This document shows, piece after piece, positions 1 to 4,114 of a stretch of 4,114 nucleotides of DNA; positions within the stretch are counted from its first letter, which is position 1, and every line of letters starts with the position of its first letter. The notes beneath the pieces are model-generated. The model saw only the letters and a program-made list of their open reading frames with translations. It was not told where the DNA came from and made no database searches. The stretch lies in IMG/VR virus record IMGVR_UViG_2529292871_000019; one strand, written 5' to 3'. The translations under genes were made by a program, and so were the position numbers. Origin of the DNA: a virus (taxonomy: Duplodnaviria > Heunggongvirae > Uroviricota > Caudoviricetes).

Positions 1-341
1 GTAAATCTTCACACCCAGCCGTCCACCAGATACTGGCTGACCACGTACAATATTGATTTCATCAAACTGCTCATCGTCCATTAACACTCCCGCATGCGTC
101 AGCGCATCCAGCGGTGCTTTCAGAATATTGTCCAGGTCACGACGACGCTTATCCGGTGGCTCTGCAATAATTTTTATGCCAGCCGTCCGGACAGGCTTAA
201 TTTCAGTCGCTGCTGGCGAACAATAAGCACCACTGCCCGGCGATAACGCTCCCCGGCTTTTGATACAAAATATGTGCTGCCACGGCGTCGCCAGTAAGTG
301 TTCACCGTCGGCGGGTAAGGTAAAACCAAATCTATGAGCAT
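1..341 (-). pseudogene. rusA: rusA-like Holliday junction resolvase, frameshifted and 3'-truncated by the window edge
   Basis: Minus-strand ATG at 341 preceded by GAGGTG; N-terminus MLIDLVLPYPPTVNTYWRRRGSTYF has the RusA-type LPxPPxxN motif and ends at TAA 174-176. The C-terminal part IKIIAEPPDKRRRDLDNILKAPLDALTHAGVLMDDEQF...GGRLGVKIY continues in a different frame from about 180 to position 1. The frame switch coincides with a T5/A5 run at 171-175. Confidence 0.6.
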
Positions 342-629: not shown

Positions 630-1397
630 TTAGGCCGCCTCATGAACGATTCGGTGACTCCGGATCAACGGCAATGCTGACCACCGTCTTTTCCTGTGGC
701 GGGTTTGCTGGTGGGCGTGAGGCAGCGGCGCAAGATTTTTTGTGCGCTGCTTCAGTATGCTGGTGGCTGTCTGTTCTCCCGGTACGATGTCACTCTCACG
801 GTATACGGAGCGGATTTTTTCCGCTGGTAATCCCAGCGAACGACGCGCTACTGCCTCAGGTAGTGCATCCACCACCTGATTGCAGGCCGCCCACCAGGAT
901 AATTCAGCCAGCGATAATTCACGCTCCTGTGTGCCATTCATTGCGTGACGAATGACGTCAATCATCCATGCTGACAAGTTTTGGTGAGCAAGTTGCTCAA
1001 GTGATTCGGAGGTCTGGTCACGCAACTGGTTGTCGCAGTGCCAGCACAACACCATTGCGCCGGTACCATAACGGTGAATGACGGTTTCACTGTGGTGATA
1101 ATCGCCGTGTGGCCACTGGCAGGATTTAACATGGCGCAGTAACCAGTCAGACAATGCGCCAGCGCCACCAGCAGCACGAATCACTCGTTCGTCGCTGAAA
1201 AATGGCAGTAATGATTTATCCTCCGCCAGCGGCTGGCGAACGGCAGGAACGACCCCGGACGGCAGATTACGCATGCTTTTCGGTTCCGGCTCCACCAGTA
1301 CCCGGGTATTGTGGAATACCGGCATGGATTCACGGCCCGGCTTAACGATCACCAGCCCGAGTTCCGGTACCAGAACAGGTCGAAGTAATACCCGCAC
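630..1397 (-). CDS. YdfU/DUF968-like prophage protein, N-terminal 255-aa ORF as it stands
   Basis: 255-aa ORF in the track. Start is GTG at 1397 (plus 1395-1397 is cac) with GGAGGT 5 nt upstream, overlapping the stop of the rem-like gene, which suggests translational coupling. Family assignment rests on synteny (downstream of hok and rem, upstream of rusA) and recalled length of about 349 aa for the full reading frame 354..1397. Confidence 0.6.
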   Translation of the reverse strand: MRVLLRPVLVPELGLVIVKPGRESMPVFHNTRVLVEPEPKSMRNLPSGVVPAVRQPLAEDKSLLPFFSDERVIRAAGGAGALSDWLLRHVKSCQWPHGDYHHSETVIHRYGTGAMVLCWHCDNQLRDQTSESLEQLAHQNLSAWMIDVIRHAMNGTQERELSLAELSWWAACNQVVDALPEAVARRSLGLPAEKIRSVYRESDIVPGEQTATSILKQRTKNLAPLPHAHQQTRHRKRRWSALPLIRSHRIVHEAA

Positions 1398-1398
1398 G

Positions 1399-1677
1399 TT
1401 ACCTCCAGATGCGTTGCTGGAATGTGCGGGACGGACGCGGTGGCCGTTCGGAGTAAGGAAGCCTGACGGAGATTATCCAGTGACGGTAGTCGAGGCTGAG
1501 GGCTTTCTTAATCTCGTATCCGCGCCTGCGGTAACACTGAATCAGCCATTCAGCCTGTTCTTCGGTGCAGGGGTCGTGCTGATACCAGTCAGATTTGAAT
1601 GCATGAGAACGCCGCCCGTGCCTGCTGGCAGGGGCGGCAGAGTTATCCGAATTGTAAAATTTGGTATCGTGCGCCAT
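1399..1677 (-). CDS. small prophage protein, rem-like by position immediately downstream of hok
   Basis: The 135-aa ORF in the track (1399..1806) contains the hok terminator in its 5' part, so the start is taken as the internal ATG at 1677 (92 aa, MAHDTKFYNSDNSAAP...). Only a weak SD (AGAGAAA); may be expressed by readthrough. Confidence 0.5.
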   Translation of the reverse strand: MAHDTKFYNSDNSAAPASRHGRRSHAFKSDWYQHDPCTEEQAEWLIQCYRRRGYEIKKALSLDYRHWIISVRLPYSERPPRPSRTFQQRIWR

Positions 1678-1749
1678 CTGTTTTCTCTGCTGGCGCAGCA
1701 GGTGCCAGTTGTTCAGGCTGACGGATGGATTGTAAACCAGAACGACCAG

Positions 1750-1774
1750 AAAAAACAAAACCCGCCGAAGCGGG
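1750..1774 (-). terminator. Rho-independent terminator at the 3' end of the hok mRNA
   Basis: Minus strand reads CCCGC-UUCG-GCGGG followed by UUUUGUUUUUU (plus-strand stem 1761-1765/1770-1774, A-run 1750-1760). Confidence 0.8.
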
Positions 1775-1779
1775 TTAAG

Positions 1780-1795
1780 TGCGGGTGCGTTGAGG
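1780..1795 (-). promoter_or_regulatory. fbi-like 3' element of the hok mRNA, complementary to the mRNA 5' end
   Basis: mRNA 3' segment CCUCAACGCACCCGCA can pair with the 5' segment UGCGGGUGCUUGAGG (2158-2172) over 15 bp with one bulge. Confidence 0.65.
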
Positions 1796-1844
1796 ATGCC
1801 TGACACATCAGCGGTGGCGAGGGATTTCTCCCCCGCCTGGTCTC

Positions 1845-2000
1845 TTACTCCTCAGGTTCGTAAGCTGTGAAGACAGCGACCTCCGTCTGGCCGGTTCGGA
1901 TTCGTACCTCGCAGAGGTCTTTCCTCGTTACCAGTGCCGTCACTATGACGGTTAAACAGATGACGATCAGGGCGATTAACATCGCCTTTTGCTGCTTCAT
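1845..2000 (-). CDS. hokD: Hok/Gef-family type I toxin, 51 aa
   Basis: MKQQKAMLIALIVICLTVIVTALVTRKDLCEVRIRTGQTEVAVFTAYEPEE; ATG at 2000 with AGGAGA 7 nt upstream; single transmembrane segment and the conserved Hok C-terminal region. The hokD assignment is from recalled sequence and the adjacent rem-like gene, not from a search. Confidence 0.9.
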   Translation of the reverse strand: MKQQKAMLIALIVICLTVIVTALVTRKDLCEVRIRTGQTEVAVFTAYEPEE

Positions 2001-2057
2001 AACCTGCTTCTCCTTGCCTTTCGGCGCGTAAGAGGCTAACCTACGTTTGTGAAGCAT
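1845..2057 (-). CDS. mok: mok-like upstream reading frame, in frame with hok (70 codons)
   Basis: ATG at 2057 with GAGG 9 nt upstream, 19 codons before the hok ATG and in the same frame; occupies the position of mok in hok/sok loci. Confidence 0.45.
   Translation of the reverse strand: MLHKRRLASYAPKGKEKQVMKQQKAMLIALIVICLTVIVTALVTRKDLCEVRIRTGQTEVAVFTAYEPEE
2014..2042 (+). promoter_or_regulatory. putative sok promoter on the antisense strand inside the mok-hok overlap
   Basis: TTGCCT (2014-2019), 17-bp spacer, TAACCT (2037-2042); same placement as the sok promoter in the plasmid R1 locus as I recall it. Confidence 0.45.
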
Positions 2058-2122
2058 AGATTGGGCCTCAGATTAATGTTAAGCGTCTTGCAGGACGCGT
2101 AATGTTAACTGGGGCTTTTCTC
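2050..2122 (+). ncRNA. sok: Sok-like antisense RNA (antitoxin), ends approximate
   Basis: Antisense to the hok leader and mok start; long imperfect hairpin TTAATGTTAAGCGTC-TTGCAG-GACGCGTAATGTTAA (2073-2108) followed by GGGGCUUUUCUCU (U-run 2116-2123). Confidence 0.5.
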
Positions 2123-2157
2123 TGTCTGCCTTACGGTGGCATGCCCGAGGCAGACAG

Positions 2158-2172
2158 CCTCAAGCACCCGCA
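2158..2172 (-). promoter_or_regulatory. tac-like 5' end of the hok mRNA
   Basis: UGCGGGUGCUUGAGG at the predicted mRNA 5' end, complementary to the fbi-like element at 1780-1795; followed by a leader hairpin with 9-bp stem (2122-2130/2150-2158). Confidence 0.6.
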
Positions 2173-2175
2173 GCA

Positions 2176-2205
2176 ATTCTACTTAACTCTCGCTTTACCG
2201 CAAAC
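2176..2205 (-). promoter_or_regulatory. putative hok promoter
   Basis: Minus-strand -10 TAGAAT (2176-2181) and -35 TTGCGG (2198-2203, 16-bp spacer); predicted start near 2168-2172 gives an mRNA of about 420 nt ending at the terminator. Confidence 0.5.
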
Positions 2206-2214
2206 CGTTTTGCC

Positions 2215-2236
2215 CGATATGGGAATTCCCATATCG
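2215..2236. repeat. 22-bp perfect palindrome CGATATGGGAATTCCCATATCG
   Basis: Exact reverse-complement symmetry read directly from the sequence; lies between the micro-ORF stop (2245) and the hok -35 element. Confidence 0.9.
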
Positions 2237-2244
2237 TAATGAAT

Positions 2245-2349
2245 TCAGTTCCCTAGTCGATCCATCAAAAACACAACCAGGCAGTAAACGCCCACAACAG
2301 CAACAACAGCCAGCGCACCTTCCATTGCCAGTGATATATCATCCGACAT
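2245..2349 (-). CDS. candidate 34-aa hydrophobic membrane micro-protein
   Basis: ATG at 2349 preceded by AAGGAGGG; MSDDISLAMEGALAVVAVVGVYCLVVFLMDRLGN, one predicted transmembrane helix; stop TGA 2245-2247. Below the 60-aa cutoff of the ORF track. Confidence 0.35.
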   Translation of the reverse strand: MSDDISLAMEGALAVVAVVGVYCLVVFLMDRLGN

Positions 2350-2464
2350 ATTCCCTCCTTTGGTGTTAATCCCGGCGAACGTTTTTACCCTCACCGACAA
2401 ATAACATATACTAAAAAAGCGATAGCCATAGCAACGCCTGTAATTGCAAATGCTTCAGGCCAGT

Positions 2465-3334
2465 TCATTGGCGCACCTCCTGCGGCGGTTCTGGTAGAGG
2501 CATCCAGTGTGATGGTATCCACGACGCACCAGGTATTATCCACCCATCATTAGCGTCAGGATGCCCCGGGATGTAAGTCGCCCATTTCATTCGCCAGTCA
2601 CCTTTCCTGCCAAAATCCCTGGCAACAAGAACGGCTGTTTTGGTATCCGGCATTCGCTCACTACAGCTTATCCAACTATCCGGAGTTACCGGATAGTTGC
2701 CCGATAGTGCATTCTGCTCCAGTGATGCTTTTACAAACCACGCTGCCTGAACTATAACGCCATGAATCCAGCGCAAATCAGCATCGCGATCTTTCTTTTT
2801 CATCTTTTCGCCACTTAAGGCCTTGCTTATGTGGCTGCGTGCCAGGTCTTCATGTAATTCCTTCGCCTCCTCAATGGTGAAACCACCAGGCAGAAGAGCC
2901 GGAGTTACCGGAGAGCTGGTTGACGCTTCCGGGATTTTCCGAAAATTATTGGTTGACGAATCTTTATTTTCCCGAAAGTTTCCGGACTGAAACATGGCTT
3001 CGCGGCAATCGTTCCAGCCTGTAGCGTATGCAGCCGCTTTGCTGCTGCCTTCAACTGGCGCATCCTGCCAATACATTTCTTCCGGCACTATCGGCGCTGG
3101 AGGGGCGGCAAATAGATATCCGCCAAAGTCAGGAAGCTCTCTAATGGCCTGTACAAATTTTTGTTTGCCTACGTCAACCCCTAATGGGTAATGAGCTATA
3201 ATCTTTGCCACCGGCTCTGCTTCCAGCGATGCCAGCGCAATCCGTGCCAGTTCCATTTGTTCACCACGGGTAAGCCCGTTTTCAAGCGGATTTTTAATGA
3301 ACAATTCAATACGTTCTTTGGTAATAGTGGTCAT
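2465..3334 (-). CDS. prophage protein with C-terminal DUF551-type domain, 289 aa
   Basis: C-terminus WISCSERMPDTKTAVLVARDFGRKGDWRMKWATYIPGHPDANDGWIIPGASWIPSHWMPLPEPP matches the DUF551 pattern; ATG at 3334 with AAGGAG upstream that overlaps the stop of the 88-aa gene. Confidence 0.85.
   Translation of the reverse strand: MTTITKERIELFIKNPLENGLTRGEQMELARIALASLEAEPVAKIIAHYPLGVDVGKQKFVQAIRELPDFGGYLFAAPPAPIVPEEMYWQDAPVEGSSKAAAYATGWNDCREAMFQSGNFRENKDSSTNNFRKIPEASTSSPVTPALLPGGFTIEEAKELHEDLARSHISKALSGEKMKKKDRDADLRWIHGVIVQAAWFVKASLEQNALSGNYPVTPDSWISCSERMPDTKTAVLVARDFGRKGDWRMKWATYIPGHPDANDGWIIPGASWIPSHWMPLPEPPQEVRQ
2663..2689. repeat. 11-bp perfect inverted repeat CAACTATCCGG-AGTTA-CCGGATAGTTG inside the DUF551 gene
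   Basis: Arms at 2663-2673 and 2679-2689; encodes NYPVTPDSW on the minus strand. Confidence 0.8.
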
Positions 3335-3344
3335 GTGTTACTCC

Positions 3345-3608
3345 TTAACCCGCAGTGCTTTCAACTGATGAGGGGAACAAAATCTTTTCATCAAACCCTG
3401 CATTCATATCATGAACAGCAACACACCAATCCATCGACGAACGATTATCAAGAGCCTCCATGATTTCATCCATGCGGCGTAGGTCATACAGGTAAATGCT
3501 TTTATCGCCAATGGTGTAAAAGCCAATTTTTTTCGGTGATGGACAGCGATCAAGAACTTCCTGTAATTCGTTCAACCATGCCCGTTCTTTTTTTGTCAAA
3601 GTTGCCAT
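3345..3608 (-). CDS. small prophage protein of unknown function, 87 aa
   Basis: Start taken as the internal ATG at 3608 (MATLTKKERAWLNELQEVL...) because it has AAGGAAAA upstream; the track ORF start at 3698 has no RBS. Stop TAA 3345-3347 overlaps the SD of the DUF551 gene. Confidence 0.7.
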   Translation of the reverse strand: MATLTKKERAWLNELQEVLDRCPSPKKIGFYTIGDKSIYLYDLRRMDEIMEALDNRSSMDWCVAVHDMNAGFDEKILFPSSVESTAG

Positions 3609-3757
3609 ATCAGTTTTCCTTATACGGATTAATTTTATTGTGCAGTGTGTTGAATGACGCCCATACCACGTCGTTATACAATTCAATAACTGGCTCAATT
3701 ATTTTTCCGATTATCCATACTAGGATTAACGGGGATATCGGTATCATCAACACGATA

Positions 3758-3784
3758 AACAGAATGAGAAACAGAAATTCTGTT
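3758..3784. repeat. heptamer cluster: AACAGAA twice direct plus one inverted copy in an AT-rich intergenic region
   Basis: AACAGAA at 3758-3764 and 3770-3776, TTCTGTT at 3778-3784; the last two form the palindrome AACAGAAATTCTGTT. Confidence 0.6.
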
Positions 3785-3833
3785 GTTCTACTCTTTCGCG
3801 GATATTTTTTCTAAATAATGTGACCATTCATTA

Positions 3834-3850
3834 CCGCCCTTTCGGGCGGC
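3834..3850 (-). terminator. GC hairpin just after the 70-aa gene stop, possible weak terminator
   Basis: Minus strand GCCGCCC-GAAA-GGGCGG about 10 nt after the stop at 3860-3862, but followed by UAAUGAAUGG rather than a U-tract. Confidence 0.25.
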
Positions 3851-3859
3851 CTCCTGACA

Positions 3860-4072
3860 TTAATCGTTGTGATAACTCATAGCTTCATTTGCAGCATCAA
3901 CTGGATTAACCTCCCACCAGCAATAATTTGGTTCGCCCCCTTCAGGCGTCCATGGTTCTAATTCATTTTTTGCCACATTCTCGTCGCCAGTGATTTTAAG
4001 AATCTGCTCAGAAAATTTTTTCACCCACTCGTTATATTTTTCCGCGTTAATGTTTTTTTGTGTATTTAACAT
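3860..4072 (-). CDS. small prophage protein of unknown function, 70 aa
   Basis: ATG at 4072 with GGAGGAG 5 nt upstream; MLNTQKNINAEKYNEWVKKFSEQILKITGDENVAKNELEPWTPEGGEPNYCWWEVNPVDAANEAMSYHND. Confidence 0.7.
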   Translation of the reverse strand: MLNTQKNINAEKYNEWVKKFSEQILKITGDENVAKNELEPWTPEGGEPNYCWWEVNPVDAANEAMSYHND

Positions 4073-4114
4073 AGATACTCCTCCGGTTAAGGATTAAATT
4101 TTATTTACAGTGCT

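Follow-up and report, generated by a model that had tools for sequence, protein, structure and literature searches.

The closest described relatives of the locus analyzed here are the hok/mok/sok (parB) system of plasmid R1, the hok loci of E. coli K-12 and the mokW/hokW/sokW locus of phage VT2-Sakai. The coupling of hok translation to that of mok and the action of the antisense RNA Sok are known for R1 (reviewed in PMC4147584; see also PMC1635323). In the K-12 RefSeq record (NC_000913.3), mokC (16751..16960) and hokC (16751..16903) are co-terminal, mokC having a 57-nt extension. The K-12 mokA, which is interrupted by IS150, is likewise co-terminal with hokA. The start of mokB is 58 nt upstream of hokB and out of frame, and hokD has lost its leader to relBE. 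The 69-aa MokC is the UniProt entry MOKC_ECOLI and carries the name "toxin" at NCBI.

The VT2-Sakai record (AP000422.1, Sp5) contains a 213-nt mokW, described as "similar to Gef leader protein", and a 156-nt hokW with the same stop codon. A 71-nt antisense RNA, sokW, lies over the first 9 nt of mokW. The mokW start, the hokW start and the stop are at positions 453, 510 and 665 of the VT2-Sakai locus in our collection (L165), and the record AP012529.1 has the same two coding sequences. The hokW-sokW pair is a working toxin-antitoxin system of type I that relies on RNase III and Hfq and has a role in lysis and phage release following prophage induction (PMC8621323). A full-text literature search, outside which the early hok papers lie, turned up no passage saying in so many words that mok and hok share a frame, and the precedent is therefore taken from database annotation. 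A 2026 survey preprint on Hok left Mok out of its analysis, by its own account.

The DNA analyzed here, called the window, is a 4,114-nt stretch of a Caudoviricetes virus (IMG/VR record IMGVR_UViG_2529292871_000019). The 601 bases around its hok gene share 98.8-99.5% identity with lambdoid prophages from strains of O55:H7, O157:H7 and O26. Of 5426 complete E. coli genomes, 4739 contain matches to this region, at a median of 2 and a maximum of 10 places per genome. A DUF551 gene lies upstream of hok, and a small hypothetical gene, a DUF968 gene and a RusA gene lie downstream, a setting typical of the nin-like region of a lambdoid prophage. The homology to the O55:H7 prophage (99.86% over 4114..652) ends at position 652, within the DUF968 gene. 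Past this point the DUF968 frame has two in-frame stops, at about 630 and 612, and the RusA-like gene (about 1-340, minus strand) is apparently split over two frames near 180-190. These disrupted genes are possibly pseudogenes or the sign of a mosaic junction.

The coding part of the locus consists of two overlapping reading frames, each preceded by a ribosome-binding sequence:

1845..2000, minus strand: hok toxin gene, 51 aa, Pfam HOK_GEF, identical to K-12 HokD

2010..2015, minus strand: Shine-Dalgarno sequence of hok, AAGGAG, recognized by sequence, 9 nt before the hok ATG

1845..2057, minus strand: mok reading frame, 70 codons and a stop, in frame and co-terminal with hok, the equivalent of mokW and mokC

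2066..2069, minus strand: Shine-Dalgarno-like GAGG of mok, recognized by sequence, 8 nt ahead of the ATG and within the region that Sok covers

Proteins of the Hok/Gef toxin family (PF01848) have about 50 residues, match the HOK_GEF profile, and possess an N-terminal transmembrane helix and a C-terminal part with conserved Cys and Glu residues. The window Hok is a member of this family. The profile matches residues 25-66 of the longer frame with 81.6 bits (E = 3e-23, cut-off 22), and over the final 51 residues the identity to K-12 HokD is 100%. At the O55:H7 locus, which is 99.5% identical to the window, the RefSeq name is hokD and the 51-aa hokD alone is annotated by PGAP. The annotated start codon of hok varies between records. 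The same type of locus appears elsewhere as 51 aa (hokD) or 70 aa ("Hok family toxin"), and in pETEC_74 (L003 534-659) the 41-aa "Hok family toxin" of PLSDB/RefSeq begins inside the 52-aa R1 Hok.

The first-pass annotation had placed an ATG at position 2057, exactly 57 nt before the hok ATG, and predicted that translation from it would give an N-terminally extended Hok of 70 aa. Both statements are borne out by the open reading frame listing, in which the ATGs at 2057-2055 and 2000-1998 are in one frame with a common stop at 1845-1847. The 70-aa product consists of MLHKRRLASYAPKGKEKQV followed by MKQQKAMLIALIVICLTVIVTALVTRKDLCEVRIRTGQTEVAVFTAYEPEE, the latter being the Hok part (MKQQKAM...EPEE). 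The window locus (2057/2000/1845) thus belongs to the class in which mok begins 57 nt upstream of hok, in the same frame and with a shared stop. Starting at ATG 2057 with its Shine-Dalgarno sequence, the mok frame reads through the hok start. The upstream ATG falls within a full-length match to the Rfam family "sok" (RF01794) at 2169..1995 on the minus strand. Between the 5' end of the mRNA and the stop codon the window and VT2-Sakai align with zero gaps, and in this alignment the upstream ATG is the annotated mokW start, base for base. The prior for an in-frame relation is one third, so the frame by itself carries no statistical weight.

The exact 70-aa protein of the window is already public as "Hok family toxin" on at least 1000 contigs. 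Compared with NCBIfam NF010277 (modulator of post-segregation killing protein), a 71-position Mok profile, it gives no match, and only Hok models are found, over residues 23-67. An R1-type Mok matches the same profile with 150.7 bits (cut-off 110). Judged from the sequence, the window mok is a positional and functional analogue of R1 Mok and not a protein homologue. The 19-codon extension is basic (4 K, 2 R and 1 E), which would fit a location of the N-terminus in the cytoplasm and normal insertion into the membrane.

The mRNA that would carry both frames is delimited by the following elements:

2158..2169, minus strand: 5' end of the hok mRNA, tac-like GGGUGCUUGAGG; position 1 of the Rfam model is 2169; pairs with the 3' end

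1783..1795, minus strand: fbi-like element of the 3' region, CCUCAACGCACCC, which can pair with the 5' end of the mRNA, from sequence complementarity and the minimum free energy (MFE) fold

1759..1776, minus strand: intrinsic terminator of the hok mRNA, a hairpin with a U run behind it, from a terminator scan

2176..2203, minus strand: weak promoter-like site for hok, with TTGCGG and TAGAAT separated by 16 nt and a further 6 nt to G2169, proposed from the sequence alone

Folding back of the 5' end onto the 3' end is a known arrangement of hok mRNAs. In the predicted mRNA, 2169 to 1755, the first 12-13 nt are paired with CCUCAACGCACCC in both the MFE and the centroid fold (z = -8.0), and the tac/fbi fold-back is thus present in the modeled structure. 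Both elements are nearly invariant among close relatives. The match to the RF01794 covariance model (hok-leader/Sok) scores 114.9 bits, above the gathering score of 59, and covers model positions 1-157 of 157, showing that the window has a structured hok leader. The -35 of the putative hok promoter fits at three of six bases, and the site scores under the threshold of the consensus scan. At that threshold the scan picked up neither the hok nor the Sok promoter. The single site that it reported, on the minus strand inside the leader at 2082..2053, is regarded as a chance find (one found, 0.8 expected). Weak Rfam matches to isrK, SNORD65, rsmX and ceN48, all under their gathering scores, were set aside. 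The isrK match (RF01394, 27.2 bits, gathering score 50) occupies 1755-1836 on the minus strand and spans the 3' UTR of the hok mRNA, including the fbi-like element and the terminator; isrK is an Hfq-binding sRNA encoded by a Salmonella prophage.

The opposite strand of the leader carries the antisense gene:

2049..2119, plus strand: Sok antisense RNA of about 71 nt, predicted, with coordinates carried over from the sokW misc_RNA of AP000422.1 through the gap-free alignment

2014..2042, plus strand: Sok promoter, -35 TTGCCT at 2014-2019, 17-nt spacer, -10 TAACCT at 2037-2042, start at G2049

The predicted RNA has a single-stranded 5' tail, a long hairpin and a U run, and the fold of 2049-2124 has an energy of -31.1 kcal/mol (z = -5.4). 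Its 5' tail is complementary to mok nucleotides 1-9 and to the mok ribosome-binding region. Having its own promoter and complementarity to the mok initiation region, the predicted Sok would be a cis-encoded antisense RNA. In all frame classes described below, it is the same mok start that Sok controls. The promoter was read from the sequence and scored under the consensus-scan threshold. Its -10 corresponds to the bases mutated in a promoter-less sokW construct, for which the primers YO-421/422 turn TAGGTTAG into CCGGCTCG (PMC8621323). By our own derivation, none of the four changes alters an amino acid when mok is read in frame with hok, which suggests that the authors of PMC8621323 treated this frame as coding.

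The relation of mok to hok was surveyed in 157 loci from 80 IMG/VR prophage contigs, 77 GTDB loci, the window, and K-12 and R1-type references. The GTDB set has one genome per species, and some of its 77 loci are without a scorable hok. A mok-like start is an ATG or GTG that has a Shine-Dalgarno-like motif and reads across the hok start, and its distance to the hok ATG was measured. The mok frame is in frame with hok in 89 loci, +1 in 30 and +2 in 18; 19 loci have no recognizable mok, and one falls elsewhere. Across the clades, a mok-like start is situated 56-59 nt upstream of hok in 137 of the 157 loci, with the following distances:

HokD type, genomes: 56 nt in 1, 57 nt in 9, 58 nt in 3

HokC type, genomes: 56 nt in 4, 57 nt in 7

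R1 type, genomes: 57 nt in 5 (Leclercia, Kosakonia, Dryocola and others), 58 nt in 20

HokB type, genomes: 58 nt in 5, 59 nt in 2

Identical HokD, 80 prophage contigs: 56 nt in 11, 57 nt in 66

Each Hok clade contains two or three frame classes, and all three occur in the HokD type. The R1-type loci with 58 nt have a long +1-frame mok in 19 of 20 cases, and in the remaining one the mok frame closes 14 nt inside hok. The mok of the +2 class is an upstream frame of 19-20 codons whose UGA overlaps the hok AUG (AUGA), the classic layout for termination-reinitiation. The AUGA loci are L009, L019, L045, L085, L102, L103, L105, L113 and L114 at 56 nt, and L155 and L157 at 59 nt; the layout arises through indels of 1-2 nt in otherwise near-identical leaders. 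Whatever the frame class, AGGAG and the hok ATG are invariant columns in an alignment of 11 loci, in which the GAGG of mok is also kept. The hok Shine-Dalgarno motif is found in 155 of the 157 loci and in every frame class. Within the HokD clade, 28 of the 35 unique leaders with a mok-like start are in frame, a majority for which either selection or shared descent might in principle be responsible.

Several hok genes of the E. coli or R1 type (L097, L106, L112, L117-L119, L133 and L151) are on mostly short contigs of assemblies labeled Veillonella, Acinetobacter, Xanthomonas, Ferruginibacter, Streptomyces, Oscillibacter, Dysgonomonas and Vagococcus. Such occurrences are probably due to contamination or mis-binning in public genomes.

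The Hok of the plasmid locus L003 matches the R1 Hok sequence. In this locus the start codon of mok precedes that of hok by 58 nt and lies in the +1 frame, and the 70-aa mok frame closes 4 nt ahead of the hok stop. L117-L119 and L124, whose leader GAGGCATCCCTATGTCTAGTC is the reverse complement of a published R1 sok primer (PMC1635323), have this spacing and frame as well. The first-pass annotation was therefore right that mok of R1 is out of frame with hok, and the alignment it had proposed as a check shows a 1-nt indel just after the ATGC of mok. Its further claim, that the window locus differs, holds relative to R1, on account of this indel, but fails relative to the reference loci mokC/hokC, mokA/hokA and mokW/hokW, which are co-terminal. 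It had itself named reference hok loci with the same in-frame arrangement as evidence against that claim, and such loci are present in the K-12 RefSeq record and in AP000422.1. The in-frame layout is the common and already annotated state of the HokC/HokD/HokW clade, R1 being off by one nucleotide. The reading of the locus as unusual is thus refuted, and the locus is an ordinary prophage member of the hok/mok/sok group.

A locus on a Klebsiella michiganensis plasmid contig (L145) has an R1-like Hok (MKLPRNTLLGCV...) behind a relE-3' leader of the K-12 hokD type. Upon comparison with L006, L091, L096 and L039, the junction is found right at the hok Shine-Dalgarno sequence (CAGGAGAAG), suggesting recombination between hok clades at this conserved site.

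The variation of the 19-codon extension was analyzed in 24 unique in-frame HokD-type leaders. The mean entropies at codon positions 1, 2 and 3 are 0.37, 0.49 and 0.36, showing no third-position excess within these leaders. Variation instead peaks at mok nucleotides 4-15 (entropy 0.95, as against 0.26 elsewhere), which are the Sok 5' tail and its target. Codons 2-5 accordingly read LHKR, LYTR, LDTC, LNTC, NGKS, SHKC and others. Among the prophage loci with identical HokD (L008-L087), the 12 nt after the mok ATG (2043-2054 in the window) are hypervariable and the other leader bases are nearly fixed. This hypervariability may be a diversification of the specificity of Sok/hok pairing between the several copies within one genome.

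The conserved bases GCCTCTTAC...AAGG are read as A-S-Y...K-G-K in the window and as P-L-T...K-V-K in hokC and in some of the identical-HokD loci, owing to a pair of compensating 1-nt indels between which the frame is shifted. The conserved bases of the extension coincide with the -10 and -35 of Sok on the other strand and with the hok Shine-Dalgarno sequence. On the evidence of these leaders, the extension peptide shows no protein-level constraint. As the conservation is independent of frame and there is no codon bias, it is the translation of mok that appears to matter and not its peptide. The free frame and the unconstrained peptide together support the idea that mok works through the act of being translated.

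There is little doubt that the window contains a complete type I toxin-antitoxin locus of the mokW/hokW/sokW kind, in which the frame of mok is not conserved and what counts is translation across the hok start. This interpretation is based on the anatomy of the locus, its homology, the annotation precedent and the observed variability of the frame, with the mok-hok coupling and the Sok mechanism extrapolated from published work on R1 and hokW. The hok mRNA, stable and highly folded, would be transcribed from about 2169 to 1755 on the minus strand, and pairing of its 5' end with the 3' fbi-like element would keep it inert. The short-lived Sok (2049-2119, plus strand) would pair with the mok ribosome-binding site and first codons, blocking translation of mok. 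If hok translation needs ribosomes that began at mok, as in R1, Sok would indirectly stop toxin synthesis. The window has the layout for such coupling, mok extending across the hok start, and by analogy hok would depend on translation of mok. Upon decay of Sok the toxin would be made and would damage the inner membrane. In an in-frame locus, a ribosome coming from mok would necessarily yield the 70-aa extended Hok, and the conserved hok Shine-Dalgarno sequence and AUG would also permit the 51-aa Hok.

The longer product could be thought of as a selected, distinct toxin isoform, a Mok-Hok fusion differing in potency, targeting or regulation, with selection holding the frame in the HokC, HokD and HokW loci. 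The in-frame state is indeed that of the majority in the HokD and HokC clades, two compensating indels restore 57 nt in some of their leaders, the basic extension would suit a cytoplasmic N-terminus, and MokC is called a toxin by NCBI. However, loci with identical HokD switch between 56, 57 and 58 nt, the variation lacks a third-position excess, and wholly different peptides (ASY and PLT) are read from conserved nucleotides. The hok Shine-Dalgarno sequence and AUG are moreover invariant in all frame classes, and the compensating indels are situated in the Sok -35 and -10, so that promoter spacing would explain the restored length equally well. Selection for a fusion toxin is accordingly improbable. 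A weaker form of the idea, that the 70-aa Hok of in-frame loci (mokC, mokW and the window) really exists as a second, toxic isoform and that killing is tuned by its ratio to the 51-aa form, is somewhat more plausible but still rather unlikely. The papers searched apparently contain no explicit treatment of this idea, and the question is generic to the mokC/mokW class rather than particular to the window.

At the other extreme, the upstream ATG might be a chance in-frame ATG in an untranslated 5' region. One in three such ATGs would be in frame, and PGAP has the 51-aa hokD alone at the nearly identical RefSeq locus. Against this, the ATG has a properly spaced GAGG, occupies the mok position of the Rfam model and is kept 56-59 nt upstream of hok in most of the surveyed loci. 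It is also the exact site under the Sok 5' tail and is annotated as mokW or mokC in reference records. A chance origin is therefore scarcely credible. The locus is best described as a hok/mok/sok system in which mok would be translated across the hok start, in whichever frame.

The window contains a textbook prophage module and offers little in the way of discovery. Its kind of in-frame mok has been present in GenBank and RefSeq annotation for decades. That the mok frame switches freely between 56, 57, 58 and 59 nt within Hok clades is a modest but useful generalization. Annotators should be warned that the 70-aa "Hok family toxin" and the 51-aa "HokD" are one and the same locus.

Among the known systems, R1 hok/mok/sok has the same order of elements as the window, the leader motifs AGCCTCTTAC and AAGGAG, a 70-codon mok, and a Sok that is antisense to the mok start. 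It differs in its mok, whose start precedes that of hok by 58 nt in the +1 frame and whose end falls 4 nt short of the hok stop. Its Mok is in NCBIfam NF010277, unlike the window protein, and the two Hok proteins are only about 41% identical. The K-12 mokC/hokC/sokC locus (gef) resembles the window in its mok start, which precedes that of hok by 57 nt in the same frame, and its Hok part shares 82% identity with that of the window. However, it is chromosomal and not prophage-borne, its Sok-target hairpin is another one, and the middle of its extension is read in a different frame as a result of two compensating indels (RVPLTDRKVKEK compared with RLASYAPKGKEK). The hokD gene (relF) of the K-12 Qin prophage encodes a 51-aa Hok identical to that of the window. 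It lies directly downstream of relBE, without mok, Sok target or Sok promoter, whereas the window leader is intact.

The mokW/hokW/sokW locus of VT2-Sakai and 933W has the same architecture as the window, the same 57-nt in-frame extension and the same lambdoid prophage background. The Hok proteins differ at the C-terminus, which is ...TAYEPEE in the window HokD and ...VDYESEK in HokW. Codons 2-5 of mok, at the Sok 5' tail, read LHKR in the window and LNTC in VT2-Sakai. The 5' hairpin is GGCUGUCUGCC...GGCAGACAG in the window (2149 and 2118, minus strand) and GGCUAUCUGCC...GGCAGAUAG in VT2-Sakai (L165). This change is a single compensatory exchange of a G-C for an A-U pair, by which the stem is preserved.
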